A DNA stretch of 64,000 nt from positions 435,340 through 499,339 of the forward strand of contig JAAEPZ010000538.1 in NCBI GenBank assembly GCA_024231955.1, read 5' to 3'. Source of the DNA: a bacterium. GTDB taxonomy: Bacteria > Krumholzibacteriota > Krumholzibacteriia > JACNKJ01. Numbering within the stretch: position 1 is the stretch's first letter; each line of letters begins with the position of its first letter. A program made the position numbers and the translations under genes. Shown here one piece after another: positions 16,096 to 40,686 of this stretch. Below the pieces are notes generated by a model. The model saw only the letters and a program-made list of their open reading frames with translations, had not been told where the DNA came from and made no database searches.

Positions 16096-16129
16096 TATGA
16101 CATATTCTCAATCAATCCAGGAGGCCTCC

Positions 16130-17152
16130 ATGAACGAGCAGCACCCTGACGGTATTCGCCCCGTATTCACCGCTCTTCTGATCCTGATCCTTGGACTGGT
16201 TCTGTCGCCGCAGTTCGCCGCCGCCGAATGGCGCGAGGGGGATTACAGGATCATGTCGCTCTCGGAGCTGTTGCCCCATCTAGGCGCGACCGCTTCCAGC
16301 GATCTGCCCGTCGATACGCCCGTGCTGCTGGCGCGGGGAACCGTTCCCGATGATATCGTCGCCATCCAGGGTGGGCTCGTGCGCAGCGGTCTGGCGCTGA
16401 AACCGACAGCGAGGGGGCGCGAGGTCGTCAGACCCGCTGTCGATGAGGCCGCCCGTGCGGCGGCGCGGCTGCTGGCCGTCACCCCCCTCCTGGTCAACAC
16501 GCGCGCCGAGGGTGTCATCGCCACAGGCGGCGCGGTGCTCTACGGACAGATTGTCGAGCCGCCCTACCTCGTCGAAAACGACGGCGAGGAGGTGCTGGTC
16601 AACGGTGTGCTGGTGTTCCCCTCTCCGGGCGTCCCTGTTGCGGTGCCCGCTGCGGATGCCGAGAGCATCCGGGAGTTCGAACTGGTGAAGACTGCGCGAA
16701 TGAGCTATCGCCGGGATCTGGAATCCCTGGGCGGCGAGGAGGCGCGCAGCCGCTTTCGCGAGACGGTGCTGACGCTTACCCATTTCGTGGAGGCCGAGTG
16801 GCGGAGTGAAAACTCCCTGCATGTCCTGCTCGCCAATGGCCAGCGCAAATCGATCATCATGTCCAACGTGGGGCGGGAGCCCGAGGAACCGACCTCCGCT
16901 CAGCTGAACGGGTATGGCGCGATGATGGCGCGCAATCTGCGCGAGATGCTCAGGCTGGATATGACCATTGTCGCCGGAGCCACCTACCTGATCTGCGAGG
17001 ACAACGCCTCGGGCGCGCACATGCGCGATCGTCTGCGGGAGGTTCTCGATTCCGTCGAGCCGGAGGCGCTGATTCTCGCGCGTCTGCAGGCTCGCCTCGG
17101 CAACAGGGCAGCCGCCGCCGATCTCTACTACTCGCACAGGGGGGGGAGGTAG
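16130..17152 (+). CDS. Hypothetical secreted/membrane-anchored protein
   Basis: ATG 16130 with AGGAGG RBS. N-terminal hydrophobic segment VFTALLILILGLVLSPQFAAA. No recognisable motifs. Its stop lies 4 nt before the next gene. Confidence 0.5.
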   Translation: MNEQHPDGIRPVFTALLILILGLVLSPQFAAAEWREGDYRIMSLSELLPHLGATASSDLPVDTPVLLARGTVPDDIVAIQGGLVRSGLALKPTARGREVVRPAVDEAARAAARLLAVTPLLVNTRAEGVIATGGAVLYGQIVEPPYLVENDGEEVLVNGVLVFPSPGVPVAVPAADAESIREFELVKTARMSYRRDLESLGGEEARSRFRETVLTLTHFVEAEWRSENSLHVLLANGQRKSIIMSNVGREPEEPTSAQLNGYGAMMARNLREMLRLDMTIVAGATYLICEDNASGAHMRDRLREVLDSVEPEALILARLQARLGNRAAAADLYYSHRGGR

Positions 17153-17155
17153 ATC

Positions 17156-20100
17156 ATGCGCAATCTAATCGGGATCGGCCTTTTGGCCCTGCTCATCTCC
17201 GTCCAGTTCGCACAAACCGCACTTGCCGGAGCCAATGAAACCCCCGGCAAGAATTATCAGCCGCACCGGTTCGGCAGCTTCCACGGGAACCTGTTCGAGT
17301 TCGGCTACCAGGATCTGCAGCTTTTCAAAATCCATGTCGTCGAGGATCAGCACTATCGCGTTGGAGCCTGTTACGCCGATTCCAAACGGGACAACTCCCC
17401 CGGCGGCGCCGGTCTGTTCAATTTTCAGGATTTCATCAGCGACAATAAGTACGATGTCATGTTGTTCACCTCCCATGGTACCGCGGATTGGGAAACGGTG
17501 ATCGAATTCTATGAATTCACCGCGCCCGGCTTTCTGATCCGCGCTCAGCAACTGGCGCTATATCACCTAATCTACGATCCCGATGAGGTCATTGCCGTGG
17601 ATGGGGAGGACTGGTTGGGGATCGCCGTCACGGAGAGCTTCTATGACAGGTTCATGAGGACCCCCGACGCCCTGGCCTGGTGGGCCTCCTGCTACTCGAT
17701 CGATATCGAACTGGTCGATCCGGGGCAGGCCCGGGCCTATGTCGGTTATGACGACTATGTCGTGAACATGAAGGTCAACTGCGATGAGCGGTATGTGCTG
17801 GGCCGGATGGACGGCCAGATGGGGCAGCAGTGGCGACCCCTGAAAAAGGCGATCGAGGGGGTCAACTCGCAATGTCCGCCCAACGACGCCTCTCTGGAGG
17901 CCCTGGGGAAGTTGAATACGACTCTCTCCCCCTCCGTGATCGAGTGGGAGCCTACCGGCGTCGTCTGCGTGGTCACGCCGGGACACGTCAAATTAGATAC
18001 GAGTCTCGACGTGAGCATCGATCCCCGTTCGGTGGTCAAGGCCTACGGGGACGCCGACCTCATCAACCATTCCTGGTCCGGCGACGACCGGATCGATTTC
18101 ACGGTCGTCCCGACCAGGCCCTATCCGAATATCGAGTACAGGGTCAAGGAGGCGAAGGCGGTAAGCAAGGCCGATCATGCCCGTCTGGACGGCAACACCT
18201 GGCCGGGGCCGCAGAACGCCTATGGTCCCAACCGCGACGACTTCGTCTGGAACACCACCTGCCCCGGCGGTTCCACACCGCCGTCGACGCCATCGACGCC
18301 GACGCCCGTATCCCCGCCGTCGACACCGACCACTCCGGGCGGCACCACCCGCGTGCCCACACCTGTCACCAACGGCGGGACCACCGATCAGGTGATCACC
18401 ATCACGCTTTACGATGTCCTGACCTGGTGCAGCAATCCCGACACCACGTTCCTCTCCCGCGGCGGCGGCAGCGACATCCTGTTCTGGGATTTCGAGGTGC
18501 CGACGGATGCGCTGCCGGGTACGATCAACACCTTCACCATCACAATCGAGGGGGAGGGTGAACCCTTCGTCGCCCACGGCGAGATCGTCGTGCCGAGTCT
18601 GGTGGCGGCCGCATTGCTGGACAACCCGGCGGTTCTCACCGGCCAGATCCAGGAGAAGAGATTGATTGTGGAGAACAACCGTGAGGTGCCGGTCGATGTC
18701 GATAACCTGACGCTGCTGAGCAGTGAACCGATCATGATCACCCCCGACCTGCCCGGCTTCACGCTGGAGGCGGGGGGGGAGATCGAACTGCTCCTGATGG
18801 TTGACGTCCCCCCGGGGCCCGACAATATGGTCTTCCCAGTTCAGGTGACTGCCGACCTGACCGGTGAAACCTGCGAGATCGGCGGCTTCGATCTCGTCAG
18901 CGGATTGACGATCGTGCTGCCCGGCCAGGACCTTGAGGTGCCCACGGGCTCTCCCGGTACTCCCCGGCCGCTGCCGATCGAGAACACCAGCGGAGTGCCG
19001 TTCGATGTGCAGGTCCTGGCCGTGGATTCGCACGGCTGGCCCGTCTCCGTGCCGCCGGCCCTGCCGCTGGGGCCATTGGAGACGGCCGAGATACCTCTCG
19101 GTTTGAGTGTTCCGCCCGATCCCCTCTTGATCGGTCAGACCGGCAATATCACTCTGGAGCTGGAGGATCCGATCCTGGCCTTGTCATCCACCCATACGAT
19201 CCACTATACGATCGGGCCGGCTCTGGAGATTGTCCTGGGGAGCAGACAGATGGAGAATGTCTATACGGGCTGCGCCGGTTGCCCATTTATGTGGCACCTG
19301 GACCTTCAAAACTCCTCAATCGAGATGATCGAAGGTGAAATCGAGTTGCTCATCGACAGCGGTGGAGCGTTGCCCCTTCTGGCACCCATACCCATCATGA
19401 TGGGACCCGGCGAAATATACCCATTCGATTTCGCACTGCCCGAATTGCCGCCGGGTTTCGCGCCGGGGCTCTACCCGGTGACGATTGAGGCCACGACATC
19501 AAGCGGACTCGGCGATTTCTCGCTGAATACGGAGATGAAGATCACCACACCGGTAACGGCTACCATGATCCAGCGAGCTGTCGCGGGCTATCCGGGCGAG
19601 GAGGCCGTCGTCTCCGCCGTGATCGGGAATCAACGTTCCGACATGCCCATGAACGGCGAGTACGAGATAACGGACTCGATGGGTTGGCTGCCGGAACCGG
19701 TTCTAGGCATATACGATTTCGAGCCGGAGGGCTTGGAAACCCTGGATGTCTTTTTGAGTCCACCGCCCAGGGGGGCGCTGGATTCGACCGAGGTCACGTT
19801 GCGTATCACCATGCTGGATGATTTCGGCGGTCTGCTGGAGGATATGGCGTCAACCTGGCTGAAGGTTTTCGAGGAGCCTGTCGGTATTGAGGATGGTCCG
19901 CCGCCGGCCCACACGGATCTGATGGGCAACTATCCCAATCCGTTCAATCCGCGTACATCCGTCGAGTTCAACCTGGAGCGTGCCGGGGATATTCGGCTGA
20001 GTGTCCACGATGTGGCCGGACGGGTGGTCTCGGTGCTCCACGAGGGCTACGCCGGGGCCGGACGGCACAGTCATATCTGGGAGGGTATGACGGACGACGG

Positions 20101-20182
20101 GGTGGCATCCAGCGGCGTCTACTTCATCAGGTTGGAGACGGCCGACGGAATCTGGTCGAGCAAGGCGGTGCTGATCAGATAG
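17156..20182 (+). CDS. Large secreted protein (1008 aa) with a C-terminal type IX secretion (T9SS, Por_Secre_tail type A) sorting domain and a Pro/Thr/Ser-rich linker
   Basis: GGGAGG RBS; signal peptide LLALLISVQFAQTALA. Last ~80 aa: NYPNPFNPRTSVEFNLERAGDIRLSVHDVAGRVVSVLHEGYAGAGRHSHIWEGMTDDGVASSGVYFIRLETADG match the T9SS CTD consensus (NYPNPFNP...V.L.V.D..GR.V..L....AG.H...W.G.D..G..V.SGVYF.RL). PT-rich linker TPPSTPSTPTPVSPPSTPTTPGG. Confidence 0.8.
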   Translation: MRNLIGIGLLALLISVQFAQTALAGANETPGKNYQPHRFGSFHGNLFEFGYQDLQLFKIHVVEDQHYRVGACYADSKRDNSPGGAGLFNFQDFISDNKYDVMLFTSHGTADWETVIEFYEFTAPGFLIRAQQLALYHLIYDPDEVIAVDGEDWLGIAVTESFYDRFMRTPDALAWWASCYSIDIELVDPGQARAYVGYDDYVVNMKVNCDERYVLGRMDGQMGQQWRPLKKAIEGVNSQCPPNDASLEALGKLNTTLSPSVIEWEPTGVVCVVTPGHVKLDTSLDVSIDPRSVVKAYGDADLINHSWSGDDRIDFTVVPTRPYPNIEYRVKEAKAVSKADHARLDGNTWPGPQNAYGPNRDDFVWNTTCPGGSTPPSTPSTPTPVSPPSTPTTPGGTTRVPTPVTNGGTTDQVITITLYDVLTWCSNPDTTFLSRGGGSDILFWDFEVPTDALPGTINTFTITIEGEGEPFVAHGEIVVPSLVAAALLDNPAVLTGQIQEKRLIVENNREVPVDVDNLTLLSSEPIMITPDLPGFTLEAGGEIELLLMVDVPPGPDNMVFPVQVTADLTGETCEIGGFDLVSGLTIVLPGQDLEVPTGSPGTPRPLPIENTSGVPFDVQVLAVDSHGWPVSVPPALPLGPLETAEIPLGLSVPPDPLLIGQTGNITLELEDPILALSSTHTIHYTIGPALEIVLGSRQMENVYTGCAGCPFMWHLDLQNSSIEMIEGEIELLIDSGGALPLLAPIPIMMGPGEIYPFDFALPELPPGFAPGLYPVTIEATTSSGLGDFSLNTEMKITTPVTATMIQRAVAGYPGEEAVVSAVIGNQRSDMPMNGEYEITDSMGWLPEPVLGIYDFEPEGLETLDVFLSPPPRGALDSTEVTLRITMLDDFGGLLEDMASTWLKVFEEPVGIEDGPPPAHTDLMGNYPNPFNPRTSVEFNLERAGDIRLSVHDVAGRVVSVLHEGYAGAGRHSHIWEGMTDDGVASSGVYFIRLETADGIWSSKAVLIR

Positions 20183-20199
20183 GTCAGGAGAGGATCAGG

Positions 20200-23040
20200 T
20201 CAATCCGCAGCCGGCTCATCGGTTGAACTCGCCAGTCTGGCTCGCCATGCGGCGGCTTCGGCATCGTAACCGCCGTCCGGCTCCGCCGCATGCCGGGTGT
20301 CGTAGAGGTCGATGATGGCCCGTACGATGCCGATCGTGTGGCGATGGCTCTCTCCGACCAAGGCCACCACTCTATCATACGCCTCAAGCAACGCGGCAGA
20401 GGCCTCGTCGAACCGTTCGAGCTTCGACAGCGTTACTCCGTAGCTGGCCAGAAACGCCGCCGCATCCTGGTGTCTCTCCGGTTGAGTCTCTCTCGCCCAG
20501 TTGACGGCCTGGGCCCCACAAATTGCGGCCTCCTCGAATTGCCCCAGATCGCGCAGCAGTCGGCCCATGTTGTGGATCGAGGTGATGGTGCTGGGGTGGT
20601 CGTCTCCCAGCATGCGGCGGTTACCCTCCAGCGATTCGCGGAAGTAGGGTTCGGCCTCTTCCAGATTCCCCAATTTCTTGAGCAGAATACCCACATAGCT
20701 GATCGCAACCAGCGTGTTGGGATGGTCATCGCCAAGCGTTCGCCGCGACCCGGCCAGGACCTCCCGGAACATCTTGAGAGCCTCCTCGTATTTTCCCATC
20801 CCTATGAGCAGACTGGCCATGTTGCTGAACGAGACCAGGGTTTCGGGATGATCATCGCCGTTGATTCGGCGACGAATCTCCAGGACTTCACGAAAGTAGG
20901 ATTCAGCCTCGTCGAGCCGCCCTAGCGCATGATACAGGTCACCCAGATTGTTGATCACTACCAGCGTATTCGGGTGATTGTCGCCAAGCACCCGTCGGTT
21001 GCCGACCAGGGCCTCGTTGAAGTAGATCAGAGCCTCATCGTACTGCTCCATCGCTTTGAGCAGGCTGCCCATGTTGAGGACGGAGGTCAATGTCTCCACA
21101 TCATCATTGCCCAGAACACGTCGGTAACCCTCCAGCGCCTCCCGGTAGTAGACCTGTGCCTCCTCCAATCTTCCCATCTTGCTGACGATAAGACCCATGT
21201 TGTTGATCGCCGCTAACGTCTCGGGATGATCGTTGCCCAGAGTGCGGCGACGTCCCTCCAAACCCTCCTCGTAGTAGGTATGGGCCTCATCGAAACGCCC
21301 CATCGATTCGAGCAGATAACCCATGCGGTCAATCGATTTCAACGTATCCTGATGATCGTCGCCCAGCTCTGCGCGCCGGGTACTCAGGGCGGACTCCTGC
21401 AATGGCTTCGCCGGTTGGAAGCGTCCGATCCGACAGTACGTCTCCGCGACGGTTTGCTGAAGCGCCGCGCGGACCAGCGGCTGATCGATGAAATCCGAAC
21501 CTATCGCCCTCACCGCTCGGTCGAGCACCTGTTTGTCCATCAGATTCAACGCAACATCCGTTGCGTTCGCCTTGAGGAGCATCCGCTCAAACCCGGCTGC
21601 GGCGGATTCGCTCTCCTCGGGCGACAGCCCCTCCGCCTCCAGCGCTTCACGTATGCGGGAGCGGAGATCGCCGTACAGAGCCTGACCCATGGCCTCAACA
21701 TCGATATCGCTCAGCATCGACTGCTGGAACTCGGTGAGAATCTCCAGCTCATCAGCCCGCTCCTCGGCCAATGTCCGTTGCACCTCTTCGGCAATCTGCG
21801 CCGCCTCCGCCTCCCGGCGAGCACGGCTCTGGTTCTGGTACATGATCGACAGGGCGAATGTCGATCCGGTCAGGATGAGAATGAAGGCGGCGATCACACC
21901 GACGGCGAGACGATAACGCCGCAGCGATTTCCGGAGAACATACCAGGGGCTGTTCCGCTTGGCGTCGAGAGGTTCCCCGGCCAGATAGCGACCGACATCC
22001 CGGGAGAGGGCGTGCGCCGATTGGTAGCGACGCTCCTTCTCCTTCGCCAGGGTTTTGAGAACGATCGTCTCGATCTCGTTGTCGATCCGGGGATTGACCG
22101 ACGCTGGCCTCCTCGGTTCGACCTTGGCGATATTGCCGAGAACCTCGGCCACGTGGCCGACAACCCCGTAGGGGAAATCCCCCGTAAGCATTTCGTAGAG
22201 GATCATGCCCAGCGAATATACATCCGCGCGAGTATCGATCAATCGAGGGTCGCCGCAAGTGTGCTCCGGCGACGCATAGGCGAGTGTACCCATGAACTCG
22301 CCCAGGACCGTTACCGGCTGACCATCCTGTATGTCGGGCCCCGCCGCTTTCGCCAGGCCGAAATCCAGAACGTGCGGCTCGCCCTCCGCATTGACGCGAA
22401 TGTTGCCGGGTTTGAGATCACGGTGAATCACACCGCGCTGGTGGGCGGAGTTGACCGCGGAGCAGATCTTCCGGAACAGCCTCAACTTCGCCTTGGTGTC
22501 CAGCGTCGTGTTCTTCAGATACTCATCAAGGGAATGGCCATGGATGTACTCCATCGCGAAGTAATAGCGCCCCTGCGCCAGGCCGCTGTCGTAAACCGTA
22601 ACGATGTTGGGATGCTGAATACTGGCGATGAGGTCAATCTCGCGTTCGAAACGGTGTTGCTGTTTCGCCGAGGCGAATGGACCGTGCAGCAGTACTTTGA
22701 GGGCCACCGTCCGCTTCGTCGCCAGCTGCACGGCCTTGTACACGACACCCTGACCACCGCGATGAATCTCATGAAGGATATCGTAGCCTTCGATGTGATT
22801 TGCCGGTGCGGGATCTGCGCCCGAACCTGAATCACATGTCATGTCCGGATCGAAATCCACGGTCTTTCCGCAATCCTGCCGATTGCTCAGCCCGAATTGC
22901 GTAGTGAGTTTACGATTGGTGATGGTCTTGCGGCAACTCAGGCAGGAAGCAAGATGTGCCTCGAAGCGCTCCTTGTCCTCCGTCGACAGCTCCCCGGCAA
23001 TGAGCGCTTCAACCTCGTCAAACTTCAGACAGATATCCAT
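20200..23040 (-). CDS. Serine/threonine protein kinase with an N-terminal zinc-finger-like segment, a TM helix and C-terminal TPR (TPR_10/12-type) repeats
   Basis: Hanks kinase motifs: GGQGVVYKA...ALK (VAIK-like), HRDLKPGN, DFGLAKA, ASPEH. N-terminus CLSCRK. TM segment LAVGVIAAFILILTGSTFALSI. Then at least 8 repeats of the type LGDDHPNTLVAISYVGILLKKLGNLEEAEPYFRESLE. Confidence 0.85.
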   Translation of the reverse strand: MDICLKFDEVEALIAGELSTEDKERFEAHLASCLSCRKTITNRKLTTQFGLSNRQDCGKTVDFDPDMTCDSGSGADPAPANHIEGYDILHEIHRGGQGVVYKAVQLATKRTVALKVLLHGPFASAKQQHRFEREIDLIASIQHPNIVTVYDSGLAQGRYYFAMEYIHGHSLDEYLKNTTLDTKAKLRLFRKICSAVNSAHQRGVIHRDLKPGNIRVNAEGEPHVLDFGLAKAAGPDIQDGQPVTVLGEFMGTLAYASPEHTCGDPRLIDTRADVYSLGMILYEMLTGDFPYGVVGHVAEVLGNIAKVEPRRPASVNPRIDNEIETIVLKTLAKEKERRYQSAHALSRDVGRYLAGEPLDAKRNSPWYVLRKSLRRYRLAVGVIAAFILILTGSTFALSIMYQNQSRARREAEAAQIAEEVQRTLAEERADELEILTEFQQSMLSDIDVEAMGQALYGDLRSRIREALEAEGLSPEESESAAAGFERMLLKANATDVALNLMDKQVLDRAVRAIGSDFIDQPLVRAALQQTVAETYCRIGRFQPAKPLQESALSTRRAELGDDHQDTLKSIDRMGYLLESMGRFDEAHTYYEEGLEGRRRTLGNDHPETLAAINNMGLIVSKMGRLEEAQVYYREALEGYRRVLGNDDVETLTSVLNMGSLLKAMEQYDEALIYFNEALVGNRRVLGDNHPNTLVVINNLGDLYHALGRLDEAESYFREVLEIRRRINGDDHPETLVSFSNMASLLIGMGKYEEALKMFREVLAGSRRTLGDDHPNTLVAISYVGILLKKLGNLEEAEPYFRESLEGNRRMLGDDHPSTITSIHNMGRLLRDLGQFEEAAICGAQAVNWARETQPERHQDAAAFLASYGVTLSKLERFDEASAALLEAYDRVVALVGESHRHTIGIVRAIIDLYDTRHAAEPDGGYDAEAAAWRARLASSTDEPAAD

Positions 23041-23169
23041 GCGCCGCTCCCCGCCGCGAATGTGATCGGCAATAAAACCATCCAGGTGCGATATAGAGCT
23101 TACAGATATGCAACAGCGGGAGTCAAATCAAACATATATGTAACCGGGCAAACATGGACAATAAGCAGC

Positions 23170-24816
23170 CTACCCATTGATCATCCGAAGTCTGATCGTG
23201 AATGTCGCACCTTTGTCCGTATTGTTCTCCGCGCTGATCTTGCCGCCGTGACGTTCGACGATCTGCTTCACAAGCGCCAATCCGAGACCGGTTCCGTCTT
23301 TGGCGAACGCCACGGCATTGCTGGCTCGAAAGAACTCGTTGAAGACCTTGTCGATCTCGTCATGCGGTATCCCGATGCCGGTGTCCCGGATGGCGATAAC
23401 GATGTGATCGCTCTCCATCACTGCGCGGAGAGCAACACTCTCCCGCTCCGGCGTGTATTTGATCGCATTGAAGAGCAGGTTCGTCACGACCTCGGTTATG
23501 GAGAGTTCGTCCCCGACCATCGTGTCGATTTCAGGGGCGACATCCGCCTCGAGCGTGATGTGCTTGTCCACGGCTTGAGGTTCAACCGCCTCCAGGGATT
23601 TCGCGATCGACTCTTTGAGGGAGAAAGCCTGCACCTCCATCCGGCCGCTCAGACGGAGCTTCGTCAGGCGCAGCAACTCGGCGATGAATGCCGAGAGCCG
23701 GGCGGTGCGGAGGGAGGCCCGCTCCATGAACTCGGCCTTCTCTGCGGGCGATCCCACACCGGACTTCACATCGGCTATCGAGAGGCAACTGGTGATGGCC
23801 GCCAAGTGCCCTTTGATATCGTGGGTGACCCGGAACACATATTCATCCTTGATGCGGTCCTTCTCCTCGAGCTCCCTGTTTGCCTCTCGCAGAGCCTGCC
23901 CCTTTTTCTCCAGCTCCATGAAGAAGAGACTCTTCTGAATGAAATTGATCTGCCGAGATACCGCCTCAATGAAGTCGAACATACCATCCACCATGTTCGC
24001 CGCCGGCAGATCGACGTAGAGCAGATCAATGTCGTCGCCGATTTTGTTCACTTGAGCTGCGAAGACCACGCGGGGGGTATCGGCATCGATGATGGTCAGG
24101 TTTATGGTCTGATCGGTCAAAGGGTGGCTATGGACCATGACCGGCCCCTCCCCGGAGACGGCGGCATTCAGCACACGCCGGGAGAATTGCGTGGAGGGGA
24201 CGCTTATGAAACCGGCGTCTCCCACCACAACCCGGTAGGCGAGTACTTCGGGTTGGTCGGGGAATTTCCCGGCTTGAGCGGAGAGCCGCAGGATGCCGAC
24301 GAACCCCTGAATCGATTCGGCAAGATGATGACAGGCCTGGGCGTAGAGATCCGCCGAACTCGACAGTTTCAACAGTTTTTCGGTGAAGGTGTTGAAGGTG
24401 GGCAACAGCGCCGGTCCCAGCAGCGCGACCGGTTCCGCTCGATAGGGGATCACCTCTTCGCCGGGGCCTTGATCGATTACGGAAAAGGTCCGACAGGGCG
24501 GGCAGCCCGCGCCGCGCCCCTCCGATTCATCATCCAGGATCAGGGTGAAGCCGGAGATCGTGACTTTGAGTCCGGTGATCATCGCCTGTGATTTGACGCG
24601 CCGGCCATTGATGACGACACCGTTGTGGCTGTCGAGGTCCTCGATGATCCAACTGCCGAAGGTATTGCGATAGATCCGTGCATGCTGCCGCGATACGCTC
24701 CCATGGTTGAGCAGGATGTCACACTGCGGATCCCGTCCCAGAATGTTGCCCTTGGGATCAAGGGCAACCACGGCCTTCCCATCGGGACCGGCAATGTTCA
24801 GGAATACATCCGGCAT
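23170..24816 (-). CDS. Cytoplasmic sensor histidine kinase with an N-terminal FHA domain (FHA - GAF-like - HisKA - HATPase_c)
   Basis: FHA core GRDPQCDILLNHGSVSRQHARIYRNTFGSWIIEDLDSHNGVVINGRRV. H-box RVTHDIKGHLAAI. N/G boxes LLFNAIKYT, DTGIGIP, GTGLGLALVKQIVERHGG. GGAGAGG RBS. Confidence 0.85.
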   Translation of the reverse strand: MPDVFLNIAGPDGKAVVALDPKGNILGRDPQCDILLNHGSVSRQHARIYRNTFGSWIIEDLDSHNGVVINGRRVKSQAMITGLKVTISGFTLILDDESEGRGAGCPPCRTFSVIDQGPGEEVIPYRAEPVALLGPALLPTFNTFTEKLLKLSSSADLYAQACHHLAESIQGFVGILRLSAQAGKFPDQPEVLAYRVVVGDAGFISVPSTQFSRRVLNAAVSGEGPVMVHSHPLTDQTINLTIIDADTPRVVFAAQVNKIGDDIDLLYVDLPAANMVDGMFDFIEAVSRQINFIQKSLFFMELEKKGQALREANRELEEKDRIKDEYVFRVTHDIKGHLAAITSCLSIADVKSGVGSPAEKAEFMERASLRTARLSAFIAELLRLTKLRLSGRMEVQAFSLKESIAKSLEAVEPQAVDKHITLEADVAPEIDTMVGDELSITEVVTNLLFNAIKYTPERESVALRAVMESDHIVIAIRDTGIGIPHDEIDKVFNEFFRASNAVAFAKDGTGLGLALVKQIVERHGGKISAENNTDKGATFTIRLRMING

Positions 24817-25056
24817 GGCTCGCCTCTCCGTTCGGTCTTGTCAGACAGATGGTTGCATCGTCGCCCGATTCAGCATACCCGCCTGCAAACGAACAGACAA
24901 GGGCCAAACAACGGCGATGAGCAGCCTTCAGGCGAGATACTGATCAGTCGCATCATGGAGCTGTTTGAGACCTGAATGGAGCGGAGGCGGCATTGGGAGA
25001 TATAGAGCGACCGGGAGTGTTAAGTGCTCACCCGTTTTGATTCCGGAGTAGGCGTC

Positions 25057-25461
25057 CTAGTCATTGATGAGGTTGGCCAGGGTCGTCTGGGCGAAGTGCT
25101 TCCGGGTTTCCTCGATCATGCGGGTGACCAGATTGCCGAGAACGCAGTTCTGCAACTGACATACCGGGTTGCTCATAAGGCAATCGTGATCCGTCAGGGG
25201 GCCATCGATAGCCTCGTATATTTCGAGGAGAGTGATCTCCGCCGGGTCTTTCGCCAGACGGAATCCTCCGCCGGGTCCGCGAGTCGATTTCACGAAGCCC
25301 TGCTTCTTTAGCCTTTGCAGCACCTTGTTGAGATGGTCCCTGGATATCTGGAACGCATCTGTGATCTCGGCAACCGAGATCAGACCATCCTGGCTATGAC
25401 CGGCCAGATAGGTCATGGCGTGCATCGCCAGGTTCGCTGCTTCCGAAATATTGAGAATCAC
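25057..25461 (-). CDS. Rrf2 family transcriptional regulator (NsrR/IscR-like, 3-Cys cluster ligands)
   Basis: Start reassigned to GTG 25459-25461 (GGAGG 7 nt upstream), giving (M)ILNISEAANLAMHAMTYLAGH..., the canonical Rrf2 N-terminus. wHTH ISRDHLNKVLQRLKKQGFVKSTRGPGGGFRLAK. Cys triad CLMSNPVCQLQNC. The track ORF 25057..25533 extends 24 codons upstream without an RBS. Confidence 0.75.
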   Translation of the reverse strand: MILNISEAANLAMHAMTYLAGHSQDGLISVAEITDAFQISRDHLNKVLQRLKKQGFVKSTRGPGGGFRLAKDPAEITLLEIYEAIDGPLTDHDCLMSNPVCQLQNCVLGNLVTRMIEETRKHFAQTTLANLIND

Positions 25462-25548
25462 ATTCCGACCTCCGTGAGAATGCACAGAATTCCCCCATCG
25501 GAAGGAAGTTACTTTTTTCAGTGTCGGCAACACCTGACACCATATTTC

Positions 25549-26307
25549 TTACAAAGATCTGCTATCCAGGATGTCTCCCCGTATCCCGGCCACGATCAGT
25601 GTCGCAGGCACCTTGCGTGAAGCCTGAGCCAAAGCTTGCTGGGCCAACTGGGCGAGTCCGCCGCAGCAGGGGACCTCCATGATCATTACCGTGAGACTCT
25701 TGATATTCCCCTGGTCGATCATGGCGATGAGTTTGTCAAGATAGACATCCATACCCTGATCCAGTTTGGGGCAGGCAATGGCCAGCGCCTTGTTCTTGAG
25801 GTGAGTACCGTGGAAATCACCTAGGGAGTAGGCGGTGCAATCGGCGGCCAGCAGCAGATCGGCATCATTGAAGTAGGGGGCCGTCGGGGGCACCAGATGC
25901 AACTGGACGGGCCACTGCTGAAGCGTCGAGGGCGCGGGGGCATGGTCACCCGCTGTTGGTGCTTTCTCCTCAGTGAAGTTCAGCGTGCGGGAACCGGGAC
26001 ATCCCTGGAACATCGGTTCGGCGGCCGGGGTCGGTTTGGCCCGACCCCGGTCCTGAGATTCATCTATTGCTGTCAGGTGTTTGGCGACCGCATCCTCGTC
26101 AAATTCGTCGGCCTCCCTCTCCTCGATGGTGATCGCGTCCACCGGGCAGTTGCCCAGACAATCACCCAGACCATCGCACAGGTTTTCCCCAACCAGACGC
26201 GCCTTGCCGTCGATAATCTGAATGGCGCCTTCGTGGCAGGAGGGTACACATTCACCGCAACCGTCGCAAAGCTCCTCATCGATTTTGACAATCTTCCTGA
26301 CAGCCAT
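25549..26307 (-). CDS. Two-[4Fe-4S] ferredoxin-domain protein (Hcp-associated)
   Basis: Two CxxCxxCxxxCP motifs (CDGCGECVPSC, CDGLGDCLGNCP) plus a C-terminal Cys-rich domain (CCGG). The start codon is 3 nt after the hcp stop. Confidence 0.75.
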   Translation of the reverse strand: MAVRKIVKIDEELCDGCGECVPSCHEGAIQIIDGKARLVGENLCDGLGDCLGNCPVDAITIEEREADEFDEDAVAKHLTAIDESQDRGRAKPTPAAEPMFQGCPGSRTLNFTEEKAPTAGDHAPAPSTLQQWPVQLHLVPPTAPYFNDADLLLAADCTAYSLGDFHGTHLKNKALAIACPKLDQGMDVYLDKLIAMIDQGNIKSLTVMIMEVPCCGGLAQLAQQALAQASRKVPATLIVAGIRGDILDSRSL

Positions 26308-26310
26308 GAC

Positions 26311-27960
26311 TTACTTTCCCTCCATCATTGCGGCAATGTCCGACTCCGCGTCCGTGATCCCCTTGATGTCGAAATTCTCGACCAGGACCTTGGCGACGTT
26401 CGGAGAGAGGAATGCAGGCAGGGTCGGTCCCAACCTGATACCCTTTACGCCAAGGTGGAGCAGGGCCAGCAACACGGCAACGGCTTTCTGCTCATACCAG
26501 GCGATATCGAAAGAGAGCGGCAGATCGTTGATGTCATCCAGAGCGAAGACCTCTTTGAGCTTCAGTGCGATTACGGCCAGCGAGTAGCTGTCGTTGCACT
26601 GACCCGCATCGAGCACGCGGGGGATGCCTCCGATGTCGCCCAGCTCCAGTTTATTATAGCGGTACTTGGCGCAGCCTGCGGTGAGGATGACGGTGCCCTC
26701 GGGCAGCTTCTCGGCAACCTCGGTGAAGTAGCTGCGTGTCTTCTGGCGACCGTCACAGCCGGCCATGACGACGAAGCGCTTGATCGCGCCGGTCTTGACG
26801 GCGTCCACCACCTTGTCGGCCAGAGCCAGCACCTGATTATGGGCGAAGCCGCCGACGATCTTGCCGGACTCCAGCTCGGAGGGAGCCTGGCAGCCTTTGG
26901 CCCGCTTGATGATGGCCGAGAAATCTTTCCGTTGCCCTTTTACCGCATCGGCGATGTGGGGGACATCGGGATAGGCAACCATGCCGGTCGTGAAGATACG
27001 ATCGGCGTAGGCGGCGGTGATCGGAACCATGCAGTTGGTGGTCATCAGGATCGGCCCGTTGAAGGAGGCGAACTCTTTCTTCTGGTCATACCAGGCGCCG
27101 CCGTAGTTGCCGACGAGATGATCGTACTTCTTGAAGGTGGGATAGTAGTGGGCGGGGAGCATTTCGCTGTGGGTGTAGACGTCGATACCAGTGCCCCTCG
27201 TCTGCTCGAGCAGATCCTCCAGATCCTTCAGGTCATGACCGGAGATCAGAATGCCGGGCTTGTCGCCGACACCGATGTTGACCTCGGTGATCTCGGGGTT
27301 GCCGTAGGTGGAGGTGTTGGCCGTGTCGAGCAAAGCCATGGTGGTGACGGCCACCTCACCGGCGCGGAGGTTGAGTCCGACGAGTTCATCGGCGGTGTGC
27401 TCGGCCGTCGTGGCCGCCAGCGCTTCGGACAGGAAGCTGTAGATTGTTTCGTCCTCGTGTCCCAGGGCCGCAGCGTGGTGGGAGTAGGCGGCGATGCCCT
27501 TGAGACCGTAGATCAGCAGTTCGCGGAGGGAGCGAACATCCTCGTGAGAGGTGGACAGGACGCCGATGGTCAGCGCCTTCCCGGCATACTCGTCCCTGTT
27601 TCCGGTCCAGGTGGCGGCTTCAGTGAGATTGTCCACGGCATCATCGCCCAGTTTGGCCATGATCAGGGATTTGAGTTCATCACGAATCGCGAAGGCCTGC
27701 TCAATCAGACTCACCAGCGATTCGTCGCTGAAATTGGCGTTGGTGATGGTCGTGAAGAGAGCGTCGGTGATGAAGCGGCCGGTGCCCTCTCTTGTGATAT
27801 CGTTTTCTCCGGCCAGTTTCTCGATCACCGAGATCCCTTTAAGGGCGAAGATCAGGAGATCCTGCAGGTTGGATGTGGTGTCAGCTTTGCCGCAAACACC
27901 CTTGATTTTGCAGCCGGTGTTGCCGGCGGCCTCCTGGCACTGGAAGCAAAACATGCTCAT
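26311..27960 (-). CDS. hcp: Hybrid cluster protein / hydroxylamine reductase (prismane protein)
   Basis: N-terminus [17 protein letters not shown]...GVCGK (Hcp cubane-cluster Cys motif). Length 549 aa. Conserved blocks throughout. Confidence 0.9.
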
Positions 27961-28012
27961 ATTTGGAAACCCCTATTAGATGGCTTGTAAGGTTCGTTTA
28001 ACCGGATGCTTG

Positions 28013-28036
28013 ATTGTGGCATCCGAATACCACAAT
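28013..28036. promoter_or_regulatory. 24-bp palindrome ATTGTGG-N10-CCACAAT in the AT-rich hcp promoter region; candidate operator
   Basis: Perfect 7-bp inverted repeat centred ~65 bp upstream of the hcp start, inside the most AT-rich stretch of the window (28000-28140). Confidence 0.3.
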
Positions 28037-28390
28037 AGCAAGGATCAGGGAATATTCAATAGTCTGCAGGTGGTTTTTTTAATAATTTTCATGTAAAGTA
28101 TGGATGGTTGTTCCCAATAATCCCACGAAATGAATCAAGTCGGAATAATTGCGATAGCCCGGTGCGATTTGGGTTCCGTGGGGCTGAGGGTTCGATTAAG
28201 ATAACGGCAAAAAAGGGGGCTCCCAGGGGGATCGCTTGCTTCAGGCGTCGAAACGGGGGCACCTGCCGGTGAAATGCGGACCCGCGATCGCATCTCTTGC
28301 ATCTTGACCGGTCCTGGGATTGCATTGTGGAGGAGGAGCCCCCAGGAGGATGGGGGCTCGTAGTATTAAAGAATGATGCAGGCGTCAAAG

Positions 28391-28552
28391 ATTACTCTGC
28401 CGGTGAGAAATCATCTTTCCCGACGGCGCAGAGGGGACATTCAAAGTCGTCCGGGAGATCTTCGAAGGCTGTTCCCGGTGCGATCCCCTGCTCAGGCGCG
28501 CCGATCTCCGGATCGTAAACCCAGTCGCAAACGTCGCAAATGTATTTCTTCA
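28391..28552 (-). CDS. Rubredoxin (53 aa); not in the ORF track
   Basis: Reverse translation gives [53 protein letters not shown], with the two CxxC knuckles and WVYDP/GxxF motifs of rubredoxin. Confidence 0.85.
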
Positions 28553-28596
28553 TAATGACTCTCTTTCGAACAGATTGATAGTTGCGTCGGATCTCG

Positions 28597-29094
28597 TTAC
28601 CGCTTCACCGTGTCGGCCAGACTGGCCAGATAGCGTACATGGCTCATCTCCTCGGCAATAATCTCCTTAACATGCTCCCGTCCTTGACCCTCGGGTACTA
28701 TCTCCAGCAACGCCTGGTAGAAAATCACGGAATCCTTCTCCCGTTCGATCGCCGCGTGGATGATCTCTGCGGCATCCTCAACCATTACCGAGAAGTCCTC
28801 CGCCACCTCATCGATCTTGAAGATCTTGCCGTCGGCAATTGCCTGCAAATAGAGTGCGGCCTCTCCGTTGGGGTCGAATTGGGTCCCCTCCGCCAGTGCG
28901 CCGGTCAGGCTCTCCTTCAGATTCGTGAAGTGGTTGATATGACTGATCTCCCAATCCGCGAGTTGGAAAAAGAGCTTCTTTGCTTCCTGGTCATGAACGG
29001 TGTCCGCGGCTTTCAGATAGAAAGCCCGTGCGTTCTCTTCAAGTCGAACAGCGATTTGCAGTACTTCCTGTGCGTTAAACATTGTCATCTCCAA
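28597..29094 (-). CDS. Ferritin-like diiron protein of the rubrerythrin family (no rubredoxin domain)
   Basis: Four-helix-bundle-type ExxH motifs (EISH, EEMSH) and E-rich helices. Overlaps the 3' end of fprA by 20 nt. Confidence 0.6.
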
Positions 29095-30319
29095 CCTGGT
29101 TCGTGGACTCCGTTGCTGAATATCCCTTGCTCATAAGTGTGGCTCTGCGCGCCAGATCCATTCCGGCCAGTCGGCACCGCTCCAGGATCTCCGGAGTGGG
29201 GCGGAACTGAGCCTTGACGGGCTCATGTGTTATCTCCCAACGCATCTGCTCCAGCACATCGTTGATGGCCTCCGGTCCGCCTCGACTCCAACCGTAGGAC
29301 CCGAACGAGAAACCAGCCTTGTTGGACGGACGCAAGCCCTTCAGATAGGTCAGTGCGGCGGCGGCCATGGGCATCATCCCCGTGTTCAGGGTCGGGGAGC
29401 CGAAGGCGATTGCCGCGGCATCGAGCACCTCGGTCACCAGCCTGGTCAAGCTGGTGTGGCGGATGTGGAGCAGGTGCGTCTCGACCCCGGGTTGAGTCGC
29501 ACCCTCCAGGATCGCCTTGGCCATCTCCCCGGTACTGTTCCACATCGTGTCGTAGATGATCAGCACCTTGGGTTTCGGCTTGTAGGATGCCCAGTCGTGA
29601 TAGGCGGCGATGATCTTATCGATATGGCTGCGCCAGATGATGCCGTGACTGGGTGCGATCATCTCGATATCCAACCCTGCCGCCGCGGTCAGGACCTTCT
29701 TGACCCGCTGCCCGTAGGGCATGACGATGTTCGCGTAGTAGGCACGGGCCTCCTCCATTACCGTGGGCAGATCGACCTCATCGTCGAAACGTTGGGAGGA
29801 GGCGTAGTGCTGCCCGAAGGCATCCATTGAGAAAAGGATCTTCTCCTCGGGAACATAGGTGAACATGGATTCCGGCCAGTGCACCATCGGCGTGTTGATG
29901 AATTGAAGAGAGCGTTTGCCCAGAGGGAGGCGATCCCCGGTTGTCACCTCGTGAAACCGCCAGTCGCTCGTATCGAAATGTCTCCCGAGCGCCAGGCGAC
30001 ATTTGCTGTTGCAGACAACGGTGGCGTTGGGGAGAGCGGCCATGATCACGGGCATCGCGCTGGCGTGATCCGGCTCGGCGTGATTGCAGATGACATAGTC
30101 TATTTTGTCCGGGGTGGTCAGTGCGGCTATGTGCGCCAGCAGATCTTCGGCAAAGGGTGCCTTGACCGTGTCTATCAGGGCGACCTTTTCATCCCGTATC
30201 AGATAGGCATTGTAGGTGGCCCCCAGCTCGGTGTCGTAACCGTGAAAATCACGGACGATCCAGTCGACATGGCCTACCCAGTCAATTCCGTCACATAGCG
30301 TTGCTTTCATCGGCTCCAA
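29075..30319 (-). CDS. Flavodiiron protein (FprA / rubredoxin:oxygen oxidoreductase-like; metallo-beta-lactamase plus flavodoxin domains)
   Basis: Diiron site HAEPDH (HxExDH) in an MBL fold. C-terminal flavodoxin-like domain (KVLIIYDTMWNSTGEMAKAI...). Length 414 aa. Confidence 0.85.
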   Translation of the reverse strand: MEPMKATLCDGIDWVGHVDWIVRDFHGYDTELGATYNAYLIRDEKVALIDTVKAPFAEDLLAHIAALTTPDKIDYVICNHAEPDHASAMPVIMAALPNATVVCNSKCRLALGRHFDTSDWRFHEVTTGDRLPLGKRSLQFINTPMVHWPESMFTYVPEEKILFSMDAFGQHYASSQRFDDEVDLPTVMEEARAYYANIVMPYGQRVKKVLTAAAGLDIEMIAPSHGIIWRSHIDKIIAAYHDWASYKPKPKVLIIYDTMWNSTGEMAKAILEGATQPGVETHLLHIRHTSLTRLVTEVLDAAAIAFGSPTLNTGMMPMAAAALTYLKGLRPSNKAGFSFGSYGWSRGGPEAINDVLEQMRWEITHEPVKAQFRPTPEILERCRLAGMDLARRATLMSKGYSATESTNQVGDDNV

Positions 30320-33514: not shown

Positions 33515-33545
33515 CTTATCGCTAATGAATATTATTAGCAATAAG
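33515..33545. promoter_or_regulatory. Fur/PerR-box-like inverted repeat in the divergent perR / hao promoter region
   Basis: CTTATCGCTAAT-gaatatt-ATTAGCAATAAG (11 of 12 arm matches), AT-rich, 9 bp upstream of the perR start codon. Confidence 0.4.
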
Positions 33546-33725
33546 GATCAGTTTGTCAACCATGTTTTTGGGATTATCTCCATTTTGAGACCCCGTATTA
33601 CGAAACCGGGAGATAATAGTGGTAATGTGGTACGGAAAAGGCTAAGGTCGATTCTGGCCAAGATCTCTCTCTTATATTCAACAGGCGTAGTCCTGATCAA
33701 TTATGCTCAGAAAAGGAGTCCTTCC

Positions 33726-35057
33726 ATGCGTAGAGCCTTAGTTGTCATGGTTCTGTTCATGTTTGTGTTGCCCGTCATAGCAATGGCGGCGACGGATGAG
33801 TCTGCCGTCGCCGGGGAATGTATGACCTGCCATAAAGAGAAAACACCCGGTTTGTACAAGCAGTGGTTCCAGTCGAATCATGCGCAGAACAACGTCTCTT
33901 GCCTGGATTGCCACGAGGCGAAACGTAATGAAAGTGATGCCTTCGAACATGAAGGTGCCTGGATCGCTACTTTGGTGACCCCAAAGGACTGCGGCTCCTG
34001 TCATGAAAAAGAGGCTGATCAGGTCGGCAACTCCTATCACGCCCATGCAGGTGAGATCCTGGAGTCGAAGGACGCTTACCTGGCCCACGCTGCCGGCGGT
34101 GATCCCGCTGCAATTGCCGGGTGTGCCAGCTGTCACGGCGCCAAGGTTGAGATTGATGAGAACTCACCCAACAAGCTGAGCCTGAAATCGTGGCCCAACT
34201 CGGGTATCGGACGGATCAATCCCGATGGCAGCAAGGGCTCCTGCACCGCGTGCCATACCCGCCATGCTTTCAGCAAAGCGCAGGCTCGTAAGCCCGAATC
34301 CTGCAGCAAGTGTCACCTCGGTCCCGATCATCCGCAAAAGGAGATCTACGAGGAGTCCAAGCACGGCAACGCTTACTACACGCATCTTGATGAAATGAAC
34401 ATCGATGCCGACCGCTGGGTTGTCGGACAGGACTACTGGGAGGCGCCCACCTGCGCCACCTGCCATATGTCCGCCACCATGAAGCAGGAGCTGACTCACG
34501 ATGTCGGCGAGCGGATCAGTTGGACACTTCGTCCTCCGGTATCGAAGATGAAGGACAACTGGGAGCAGAAGCGGGAGAATCTCAAGGATGTCTGTCACGC
34601 CTGCCATACGGTCTACTTTGTCGATGGCCATTACGCCCAGTTCGACGGTCTGGTGAACCTGTATAATGAAAAATTCGCCAAACCCGCCGGTGCGATCATC
34701 GCCAAGATCAAGGAGAAGAAGCTGCTGGAGAACCAAGCGGCCTTCAGTAATGAGATCGAGTGGGAGTACTGGGAGCTGTGGCACCATGAAGGTCGCAGGG
34801 CCCGTCACGGCGCAGCCATGATGGCCCCGGACTACACCTGGTGGCATGGCATCTACGATGTCGCTCACACCTTCTACTTCAAGTTCATACCGTCCGCGCT
34901 CGAGCTGGATGATCCGGAGGTCAATGCGATGATCGAGGAGATCATGCAGAGCCCGATGCACAATTGGGCGAAGAGGCCGACGGGTGAAATCAAGGCCGAT
35001 ATCAAATCGGGCAAGATGCAGAAGATGTATGAGGACTTCTACGGCGTGCATAAGTAG
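33726..35057 (+). CDS. HAO-family (hydroxylamine oxidoreductase-like) octaheme cytochrome c
   Basis: ATG 33726 with AAAGGAG RBS; signal peptide. Eight CXXCH: CMTCH, CLDCH, CGSCH, CASCH, CTACH, CSKCH, CATCH, CHACH. The size and spacing are typical of the HAO/epsilon-Hao family. Confidence 0.75.
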   Translation: MRRALVVMVLFMFVLPVIAMAATDESAVAGECMTCHKEKTPGLYKQWFQSNHAQNNVSCLDCHEAKRNESDAFEHEGAWIATLVTPKDCGSCHEKEADQVGNSYHAHAGEILESKDAYLAHAAGGDPAAIAGCASCHGAKVEIDENSPNKLSLKSWPNSGIGRINPDGSKGSCTACHTRHAFSKAQARKPESCSKCHLGPDHPQKEIYEESKHGNAYYTHLDEMNIDADRWVVGQDYWEAPTCATCHMSATMKQELTHDVGERISWTLRPPVSKMKDNWEQKRENLKDVCHACHTVYFVDGHYAQFDGLVNLYNEKFAKPAGAIIAKIKEKKLLENQAAFSNEIEWEYWELWHHEGRRARHGAAMMAPDYTWWHGIYDVAHTFYFKFIPSALELDDPEVNAMIEEIMQSPMHNWAKRPTGEIKADIKSGKMQKMYEDFYGVHK

Positions 35058-35068
35058 GGGGCGCGGAC

Positions 35069-36598: not shown

Positions 36599-36705
36599 AC
36601 AGCTATTGGCGATTGGCCCATATTCAAACCCCACAGGAGGTGACTGCGATTCTGTCCAACGGTGATGATATCCGTCTCCCCTTTCTGGGGGCGTTCGGCC
36701 GCCGC

Positions 36706-39793: not shown

Positions 39794-40038
39794 CGGGATC
39801 CTTTCGGCGATTTGACCCTGTTCAGTTATCTCCACACCTGGTTATCGAAACGCCCCCCCTCTGCCGGGGGAGCGTCGCCCGGTGATGCCCATTCCTCACT
39901 ATTTACATCGGATGCCAACCTGAAAGCCCTTTTCAACCATTGAAAGGAGCTTTCCCGTATTCGTGGGTAAGGCTGAAAGTGGTAGTCGCTAACCGCTTGT
40001 TATTACATGCATTACGGGCTTGGCTCTGCGCGAGGTCA

Positions 40039-40680: not shown

Positions 40681-40686
40681 GACGCA

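Follow-up and report, generated by a model that had tools for sequence, protein, structure and literature searches.

A cytoplasmic FHA domain histidine kinase and an adjacent Hanks-type Ser/Thr kinase are probable partners in a hybrid signaling pathway

INTRODUCTION

In the 64-kb stretch of bacterial DNA analyzed here, referred to as the window, the genes for a cytoplasmic histidine kinase (HK), whose N terminus is formed by an FHA domain, and for a membrane-bound Hanks-type Ser/Thr kinase (STK) are neighbors. This arrangement raises the question of whether the two kinases act in one pathway, in which a phosphothreonine (pThr) mark set by the STK would be read by the FHA domain of the HK, and which receiver would then accept the phosphoryl group. 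Such a hybrid circuit had been put forward in the original prediction for this locus, and it is supported by the gene context described below. The pair probably represents an unstudied hybrid signaling pathway of a kind that is known in outline.

RESULTS

The HK gene occupies positions 24816..23170 of the minus strand and encodes a cytoplasmic protein of 548 amino acids with the order FHA-GAF-DHp-CA, as deduced from the open reading frame and Pfam searches. It is followed on the same strand by a spacer of 129 bp (23041..23169) and by the STK gene (23040..20200; 946 amino acids), whose membrane-bound product is composed of a zf-HC2 motif, a kinase domain, a transmembrane (TM) helix, and a TPR array. 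The layout originally described for the pair, with both genes on one strand and a gap of 129 bp, was exact to the coordinate. A promoter and terminator scan of positions 19900 to 25700 gave no minus-strand terminator-like site or anything else in this gap, with counts equal to the shuffled expectation. Downstream of the STK gene lies a convergent gene on the plus strand (17156-20182). The genes upstream of the HK gene, coding for an Rrf2 protein (25533..25057), an Fer4 protein (26307..25549), and Hcp (27960..26311), are located on the minus strand, as is the HK gene. Rrf2 and hcp had been named as the next genes, and they are indeed near the pair and on its strand, but they are found upstream of the HK gene and not downstream. 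A tie to the upstream Rrf2/hcp/flavodiiron/rubrerythrin stress island was rejected because this context is not kept in relatives.

The HK belongs to a family with >1250 full-length homologues of ~550 amino acids each, and as it is devoid of any hydrophobic segment, it is cytoplasmic. Its AF2 model has a pLDDT of 78.7. The FHA domain spans residues ~3 to 96 (24529..24810, minus strand), and the Pfam FHA profile (PF00498) matches residues 25 to 76 with 61.2 bits, which is three times the gathering cutoff of 20.7, and Yop-YscD_cpl matches the domain with 47.8 bits. The GR, SxxH, and NG motifs define pThr binding by FHA domains (PMC1262709), and the corresponding residues, G27-R28, S42-R43-Q-H45, and N65-G66, are invariant among 74 orthologues sharing ~50% identity. 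The N-terminal domain is therefore the FHA domain that had been predicted, with its pThr-binding residues intact.

The FHA domain is joined to the remainder of the protein by a low-confidence, Ser/Thr-enriched linker (residues ~97 to 135; 24412..24528, minus strand), and within it the AF2 pLDDT falls below 50 at residues 98 to 108. Among the orthologues, Thr is found with a frequency of 39 to 51% at positions 102, 106, and 110, and the window HK carries the sequence T110-F-S-V113. In light of this, it is conceivable, although in our view rather unlikely, that the HK is switched in cis: the STK or another kinase would mark a linker Thr, for example in T110-F-S-V113, and the FHA domain would bind it intramolecularly, in the manner of GarA/OdhI and DgcB, so that no stable complex with the STK would be needed. 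The disorder and the Ser/Thr content of the linker fit such a switch, as does a T-x-x-[I/V] pattern present in the window HK and in ~40% of the orthologues. Moreover, the FHA domain is similar in sequence to that of OdhI (2kb3; E 5e-7), and the ligands of both DgcB and OdhI are self-derived pThr residues (PMC6733907). However, a search for an invariant linker Thr as a candidate FHA ligand gave none among the orthologues, and the FHA domain begins at residue ~3, so that there is no N-terminal tail of the type seen in OdhI and DgcB.

Residues ~136 to 300 (23917..24411, minus strand) form a divergent GAF-fold domain, which was absent from the original prediction. Pfam GAF profiles gave no match to residues 101 to 305 up to an E value of 10, and a weak GAF/GAF_2 match was obtained for 1 of 53 relatives. 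The following DHp helical hairpin (residues ~301 to 392; 23641..23916, minus strand) contains the putative phosphoacceptor H332, with AF2 helices at residues 279 to 348 and 357 to 390. The Pfam HisKA profile (PF00512) scored 13.5 bits (E 0.08) against the window HK, below its cutoff of 26.9, and some orthologues have a weak precomputed match to it. Despite this, a DHp domain is present, given the H-box T331-H332-D-I-K-G-H337, which is invariant in the 74 orthologues, the AF2 hairpin, and an alignment of residues 315 to 541 with the class I kinase HK853 (2c2a; E 6e-25). The C-terminal catalytic ATP-binding (CA) domain (residues ~393 to 548; 23173..23640, minus strand) matches HATPase_c with 96.6 bits (cutoff, 26.4), and its N (NLLFNAIKYTP), G1 (DTGIGIP), F (FFRA), and G2 (GTGLGL) boxes are kept in the 74 orthologues. 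Of the three profiles proposed for this protein, FHA and HATPase_c were thus confirmed outright, whereas HisKA fell short of its threshold.

The STK is a member of a much larger family, with >7899 homologues. Its kinase catalytic domain (residues ~83 to 352; 21985..22794, minus strand) matches Pkinase (PF00069) with 159.8 bits (cutoff, 31.7) and has all of the VALK, HRDLKPGN, DFG, and SPE motifs. The only segment with a Kyte-Doolittle value of >1.6 corresponds to a single TM helix (residues ~377 to 401; 21838..21912, minus strand). This helix is preceded by the basic sequence RKSLRRYR, which would fit a cytoplasmic kinase and an exterior C terminus. About eight 42-residue TPRs, predicted to be periplasmic on the basis of this topology, occupy residues ~546 to 905 (20326..21405, minus strand), with matches to TPR_12 (308.6 bits in 6 stretches) and TPR_10 (274.2 bits in 7 stretches) and a 42-residue register at residues 559, 601, 685, 769, and 811. 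The same topology has been described for planctomycete STK-TPR proteins (PMC11032199). The protein is accordingly the membrane-anchored, TPR-rich Hanks-type kinase that had been anticipated. A feature absent from the original prediction is an N-terminal zf-HC2 motif (residues 1 to 40; 22921..23040, minus strand; 31.1 bits versus a cutoff of 22.2), which has the ZAS-type HxxxCxxC arrangement (C4...H29-x3-C33-x2-C36) and is kept in the HK-adjacent STKs of Planctomycetota. The N-terminal linker of the STK has no invariant Thr, and a P-T-[KRQ]-[SA] motif common to the planctomycete STKs is missing from the window STK. Assignment to the PASTA kinases (PknB/Stk1, NF033483) was rejected, as the match (257 bits versus 450) covers the kinase domain only and there are no PASTA domains; identities as BREX PglW, MADS6, or lanthionine synthetase were also rejected, with all scores far under the cutoffs.

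Conservation of the two genes as neighbors had been named as a check on the pairing, and it was borne out. Of 25 distinct HK orthologue loci from Krumholzibacteriota-like bacteria and Planctomycetota, 13 have an STK gene directly beside the HK gene (the window, L003, L005, L006, L008, L017, L019, L020, L022, L023, L024, L095, and the P0008 contig). Among them are 3 of the 5 closest relatives (55 to 62% identity) and, at greater distance, 9 of 19 loci from Planctomycetota; in L003, an STK gene is found on both sides of the HK gene. In contrast, no STK was found within 10 kb in any of 37 loci of a sister HK family that lacks the FHA domain and shares 45 to 50% identity in DHp-CA (Fisher p = 3.8e-7). 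Three gene orders were seen, namely, divergent-upstream, same-strand-upstream, and same-strand-downstream; among close relatives, the STK is downstream in L006/L007 and upstream in L095, and on the P0008 contig the upstream STK gene overlaps the HK gene by 4 bp. The HK-adjacent STKs stem from at least two kinase lineages, with and without zf-HC2 (the latter in L095 and L022). The adjacency has therefore outlasted both rearrangement and replacement of the kinase, which argues for a function. It is nevertheless dispensable, as neither an STK nor a receiver is encoded near the HK in L001 (65%) and L002 (57%), the two closest relatives examined. A metagenome scan for further close relatives returned 3 loci, with one useful fragment (L092).

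The size of the STK family could suggest that one of many STK-TPR genes came to lie beside an FHA-HK gene by accident. Such genes are abundant, with the >7899 homologues noted above, and these kinases are expanded in Planctomycetota (PMC11032199); furthermore, the adjacency is missing in L001 and L002. However, it recurs in two phyla and in three gene orders, once with the 4-bp overlap, and it is missing in the FHA-less sister family, so that we consider a chance origin highly improbable.

On the STK side, three homologues indicated that members of this family are not generally linked to an HK, and the planctomycete STKs adjacent to HKs are 44 to 46% identical to the window STK, no closer than many family members outside the neighborhood survey. 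The close homologue P0126 has no HK, and the close homologue P0123 (L090) is followed by an ECF sigma factor gene (Sigma70_r2), again with no HK. It could thus be argued that the FHA domain reads some other phosphoprotein, that the STK has different targets, for example the receiver or an ECF sigma factor to which its zf-HC2 motif binds, and that the two kinases share a regulon without contact. ECF sigma factors under the control of Ser/Thr kinases are known (PMC7826278), and the FHA-HK is kept in L001 and L002 without an adjacent STK. On the other hand, a search for an ECF partner of the zf-HC2 motif gave no sigma-70 family open reading frame in the window and no sigma factor gene within 8 to 10 kb of any FHA-HK locus, and STK genes are adjacent only where the HK has an FHA domain (13 of 24 or 25 loci, versus 0 of 37 loci for the FHA-less family). 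We therefore regard this explanation as improbable.

The response regulator had been predicted to be encoded elsewhere. No receiver (REC) domain was found within 13 kb of the HK gene, and the only one in the window belongs to a sigma54 NtrC-type regulator (38450-39793), which is encoded directly behind its own dCache-HAMP kinase (36613-38457). The classical two-component arrangement, with a response regulator gene beside that of the kinase, is consequently absent from the window, but it is present in 16 of 25 orthologous loci, where a conserved stand-alone REC protein of 132 amino acids is encoded beside the FHA-HK. This receiver is also found beside the FHA-less sister HK family. In the window, a tblastn search for the 132-amino-acid receiver gave a weak match on the NtrC-type regulator alone, and a phmmer search with four REC queries returned only the same gene. 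Past the His, the DHp helix of the window HK (HDIKGHLAAITSCL) is almost the same as that of response regulator-linked orthologues (HDIKGHLAAIQSCL), and judging from these sequences, the 132-amino-acid receiver family is likely to provide the partner of the window HK. The relatives hence point to a specific type of receiver for which the window contains no gene, in keeping with the prediction.

The FHA-GAF module was also detected outside the HK family, where it is mostly fused to a PP2C phosphatase (48 of 53 cluster representatives). In L005, L012, and L019, the HK locus also contains an FHA-GAF-PP2C gene; the window contains none.

DISCUSSION

The data presented here lead us to lean toward the view that a hybrid Ser/Thr-to-His/Asp pathway starts with the STK and the HK as its first two steps. 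Both kinases have intact catalytic residues, and from domain function and gene linkage we infer which of them phosphorylates which, where the FHA domain docks, and what the stimulus, the sign of regulation, and the output might be. The STK would sense an extracytoplasmic signal via its TPR array, and perhaps an intracellular one via the zinc motif, and would phosphorylate a Thr, which could be one of its own or one in the Ser/Thr-rich linker between the FHA and GAF domains of the HK. This pThr would be bound by the FHA domain of the soluble HK, and the resulting docking or conformational change could be relayed by the GAF domain and the long helix that leaves it to the DHp hairpin, where, as the known function of these domains implies, autophosphorylation of H332 would change in response. 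The phosphoryl group may then be transferred to a stand-alone receiver of the 132-amino-acid family, which is the neighbor of the HK in most relatives and which, in this genome, would be encoded outside the 64-kb window. In relatives, a PP2C with the same FHA-GAF reader probably resets the pThr mark or competes for it.

We tentatively propose, as a possibility, that the pair is the local remnant of an undescribed cross-phylum module consisting of the STK, the FHA-GAF HK, the 132-amino-acid receiver, and the FHA-GAF PP2C. If this is true, a receptor Ser/Thr kinase, which in many cases has a ZAS-like zinc motif, would feed a pThr mark for which kinase and phosphatase outputs with the same reader compete, so that a Ser/Thr signal would be converted into a His-Asp signal with a built-in reset. 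The Krumholzibacteriota-like lineage would then have been rewired, with an STK-TPR gene in the slot of the receiver gene.

Cross-talk between Hanks kinases and two-component systems is known mostly from scattered cases, such as Myxococcus EspA and the PASTA kinases that act on WalR/CroS-type systems. The highly conserved family described here is of another kind, in that the proposed coupling is hard-wired: an FHA-GAF reader is fused to an HK in >1250 members with ~50% identity across phyla, and a kinase gene, a receiver gene, and at times a matching phosphatase gene are repeatedly linked to it. A conserved family of this type, with its linked genes, offers a clean and testable model for the conversion of a pThr mark into a His-Asp signal. 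The 132-amino-acid receiver family, in turn, supplies a predicted partner for a kinase that would otherwise be an orphan, in phyla that have been little studied. Nothing is overturned by these findings, and the logic is as expected for these domains.

One close parallel is EspA, which contains PAS domains and a C-terminal receiver and which reportedly has an N-terminal FHA domain, a description attributed to Cho and Zusman in 1999, Stein et al. in 2006, and Higgs et al. in 2008. In Myxococcus xanthus, EspA has been linked to the Ser/Thr kinases PktA5 and PktB8 (PMC4320627), which sets a precedent for a tie between an STK and a histidine kinase. Like EspA, the window HK combines an N-terminal FHA domain with a probable tie to membrane Hanks-type STKs and has no DNA-binding response regulator gene beside it. 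Unlike EspA, it has a GAF-fold domain and no receiver, a separate 132-amino-acid receiver being found in relatives, and the window STK differs from the partners of EspA in carrying zf-HC2 and TPRs. Orthology to EspA (NF052573) was rejected, with 100 bits versus a cutoff of 1400 and neither PAS nor REC found by Pfam.

[quoted passage not shown] The write-read-erase logic is the same as that proposed here; however, the window contains no T6SS genes, the reader is a histidine kinase, and the eraser in relatives has the same reader module.

FHA-gated signaling enzymes have a precedent in the FHA-GGDEF protein DgcB of Bdellovibrio (PMC6733907). In DgcB and OdhI/GarA, as proposed for the window HK, the FHA domain is a pThr-gated input downstream of a Hanks kinase (PMC6733907), but these proteins bind a pThr of their own N-terminal tail, whereas the window HK lacks such a tail and its output is a histidine kinase. 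The membrane STK-TPR proteins of Planctomycetota and Myxobacteria have the same cytoplasmic kinase, single TM helix, and C-terminal TPR array as the window STK (PMC11032199), which is set apart by zf-HC2 and a recurrent linkage to FHA-HKs, neither of which is described in that survey. Finally, the uncharacterized FHA-GAF-PP2C proteins (SpoIIE-type) of Planctomycetota and other phyla share the FHA plus divergent-GAF input, with 28 to 40% identity over residues 1 to 300, and differ in output, which is a PP2C phosphatase in these proteins and DHp-CA in the window HK.

Results

The histidine kinase (HK; 24816..23170, minus strand, 548 amino acids) is followed, after a spacer of 129 bp, by the ORF for the Ser/Thr kinase (STK; 23040..20200, minus strand, 946 amino acids), in agreement with the original prediction of an adjacent pair on one strand. 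Pfam searches recognized the FHA domain (residues 25 to 76; 61.2 bits, cutoff of 20.7) and the HATPase_c domain (residues 435 to 545; 96.6 bits) of the HK, and a hydropathy scan revealed no membrane helix in this protein. The HisKA domain that had also been expected remained below the Pfam threshold (13.5 versus 26.9 bits); however, the DHp domain is real, since the H-box T-H332-D-I-K-G-H is unchanged across 74 orthologs, residues 315 to 541 align with HK853 (E value of 6e-25), and the AlphaFold model contains a DHp helical hairpin. The phosphothreonine-binding residues of the FHA domain (G27-R28, S42-x-x-H45, and N65-G66) and all kinase boxes are likewise invariant among the HK orthologs. The H-box (residues 331 to 337; 23806-23826, minus strand) has a Gly at position H+4 in the 74 orthologs. 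HisKA kinases usually have Thr or Asn at this position, a feature tied to phosphatase activity, and because of the Gly, the HK may lack this usual function.

The STK has a zf-HC2 domain (residues 12 to 37; 31.1 bits), with a ZAS-like zinc motif, C4...H29-x3-C33-x2-C36, at its N terminus that adds to the original description, a Pkinase domain (residues 86 to 346; 159.8 bits), and strongly matching TPR_12/TPR_10 arrays from approximately residue 560 to 900. A hydropathy scan identified a single membrane helix (residues ~377 to 401) with a basic stretch on its N-terminal side, and the description of the protein as a membrane-anchored, TPR-rich kinase is therefore correct.

The family of the HK is large and unusually uniform: its more than 1250 matches are nearly all full-length and 545 to 560 amino acids long, with 55 to 65% identity in Krumholzibacteriota-like metagenome bins and ~50% identity in Planctomycetota (Phycisphaerae, Sedimentisphaerales, and Pirellulales). 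We annotated 25 distinct ortholog loci using phmmer queries for FHA, GAF, HK core, Pkinase, TPR, zf-HC2, REC, and PP2C. The co-conservation analysis proposed at the outset came out in favour of the pair: a Hanks kinase directly adjoins the HK in 13 of these loci. It lies downstream in the same orientation (the window, L006/L007, L003, and L019), upstream in the same orientation (L095 and, with a 4-bp overlap, the P0008 contig), or divergently upstream (L003, L005, L008, L017, L020, L022, L023, and L024). Like the window STK, most of these kinases carry an N-terminal zf-HC2 motif, together with the same kinase signature and juxtamembrane motif; the kinases of L095 and L022 belong to a separate lineage without the zinc finger. 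In contrast, none of 37 loci of a sister HK family, which served as internal control and has 45 to 50% identity in the DHp-CA core and no FHA domain, had an STK within 10 kb (P = 3.8e-7 by Fisher's exact test, leaving out L013, whose upstream flank is missing). No STK was found near the HK in L001 (65% identity) or L002 (57% identity), and the HK-STK linkage is thus recurrent yet not universal.

Several of these loci have further features. On the Phycisphaerales chromosome CP070806.1 (L003/L010), the HK lies between two different STKs: the upstream one is a divergent zf-HC2 kinase, the downstream one a kinase-TPR protein. No receiver adjoins this HK, and 4 kb downstream begins a cluster resembling chemotaxis genes (CheB, Hpt, CheX, CheY, CheD, and CheR). 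A 207-amino-acid signal-peptide protein without family assignment is encoded 5' of the STK-HK pair in L095 (4424-5047) and on the P0008 contig (3484-4107), with no homologue in the window or the remaining loci.

The STK family has more than 7899 matches, and two close homologues examined from the STK side, P0123 and P0126, showed no HK linkage. In L090 (6001-9851), P0123, a zf-HC2 protein with 68% identity over the N terminus and kinase domain, is followed 20 bp on by a gene for an ECF-type sigma factor (Sigma70_r2). This position directly after P0123 hints that some members of the STK family pair with sigma factors via the ZAS-like motif. No sigma factor gene was found near the HK in the window or in the other FHA-HK loci.

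Of the 25 ortholog loci, 16 have a conserved 132-amino-acid stand-alone receiver (RR132) directly next to the HK. The sister HKs of Planctomycetota (L026-L062; ~445 to 470 amino acids), in which a different N-terminal region of ~200 amino acids stands in place of FHA-GAF, are almost always preceded by an RR132-type receiver and never adjoin a Ser/Thr kinase. No RR132 receiver adjoins the HK in any of its five closest relatives, in several of which an STK-TPR gene holds the adjoining slot, and none is encoded in the 64-kb window. Work from the Laub laboratory reportedly places partner specificity usually in the DHp helix after the His. As this helix is nearly identical in the window HK and the receiver-linked orthologs, we predict that the genome encodes an RR132-family receiver elsewhere.

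That no response regulator lies near the pair was confirmed: four phmmer receiver queries found a single REC domain in 64 kb, at 38450-39793, in a sigma54 NtrC-type regulator directly 3' of its own dCache-HAMP kinase. These two genes are followed by those for an outer-membrane factor, a CusB-like fusion protein that carries a heavy-metal-binding domain, and a pump of the RND type; the whole stretch (36613-47673, plus strand) probably encodes a metal efflux system with two-component control of its own. The Rrf2 and hcp genes had been placed after the STK; instead, the gene 3' of the STK is convergent, and Rrf2, Fer4, and hcp are found directly upstream of the HK, in its orientation, followed by rubrerythrin and flavodiiron protein genes. 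Together, these five genes form an anaerobe-type nitrosative/oxidative stress island (25057-30319, minus strand; hybrid-cluster protein, Prismane, 576 bits; flavodiiron protein, ODP plus flavodoxin). The island is not kept beside HK orthologs, although the P0008 contig has an Rrf2 gene at a distance of 5 kb from its HK. Elsewhere, the window encodes two multihaem c-type cytochromes (33525-36532, plus strand; Multi-haem_cyto, NapC/NirT-like) and an 825-amino-acid protein with an uncommon pairing of a KAP-family P-loop NTPase and an FGE-sulfatase (SUMF1-like) domain (1816-4293, plus strand). At 16097-20182 (plus strand), a 351-amino-acid protein without a Pfam match precedes a 1008-amino-acid secreted protein, whose C terminus resembles FlgD_ig/Por_Secre_tail sorting domains at scores under the Pfam cutoffs; similar tails occur on HK neighbours in L001, L002, L004, and L006.

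Discussion

A full-library search with HK residues 1 to 305 matched the whole FHA-GAF module in ~70 representatives, which were clustered at 50% identity, so that counts reflect diversity and not abundance. The 53 scanned comprised 48 PP2C/SpoIIE phosphatases, 4 histidine kinases, and 1 sigma54 activator; this last fusion (Sigma54_activat plus HTH_8) recalls FHA-containing enhancer-binding proteins of Myxococcus. An FHA-GAF-PP2C gene shares the locus with the HK in L005, L012, and L019, and STK, HK, receiver, and phosphatase occur together in L005 and L019. The HK thus has the appearance of a fusion in which an FHA-GAF reader from a family of Ser/Thr phosphatases is joined to the DHp-CA core of the receiver-linked kinase family.

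In the best-supported reading, the membrane STK would write a phosphothreonine that is read by the FHA domain of the HK. From there, the signal would reach the DHp domain through GAF and the helix that leaves it, and would change H332 phosphorylation as well as phosphotransfer to the stand-alone receiver. This reading builds on the observed domains, residues, and linkage and takes its remaining steps from established FHA function and precedents. The FHA-GAF PP2C, where present, could erase the mark or compete for it. The FHA domain might dock in trans to the STK or in cis to the HK's own linker, which is disordered and rich in Ser/Thr (e.g., T110-F-S-V); no candidate Thr is invariant in this linker or in the N-terminal linker of the STK. 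A periplasmic location is predicted for the TPR array, in line with what is reported for planctomycete STK-TPR proteins (PMC11032199). On the cytoplasmic side, the zinc motif might provide a further input, by redox sensing or by binding a partner, but no sigma factor gene lies close by.

Precedents include DgcB, an FHA-gated diguanylate cyclase (PMC6733907), and EspA of M. xanthus, which is linked to PktA5/PktB8 (PMC4320627). Coupling of Hanks kinases to a histidine kinase with an FHA domain is of a kind already known, and the family described here, on which our literature search found no paper, is unsurprising, while being well suited as a model system and useful for annotation. The HK is not EspA itself, as it scores 100 bits against a cutoff of 1400 bits and has neither a PAS domain nor a receiver. 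What is distinctive of this family is its cryptic GAF domain, a reader module that it shares with PP2C phosphatases, a dedicated stand-alone receiver, and a zf-HC2 kinase partner.
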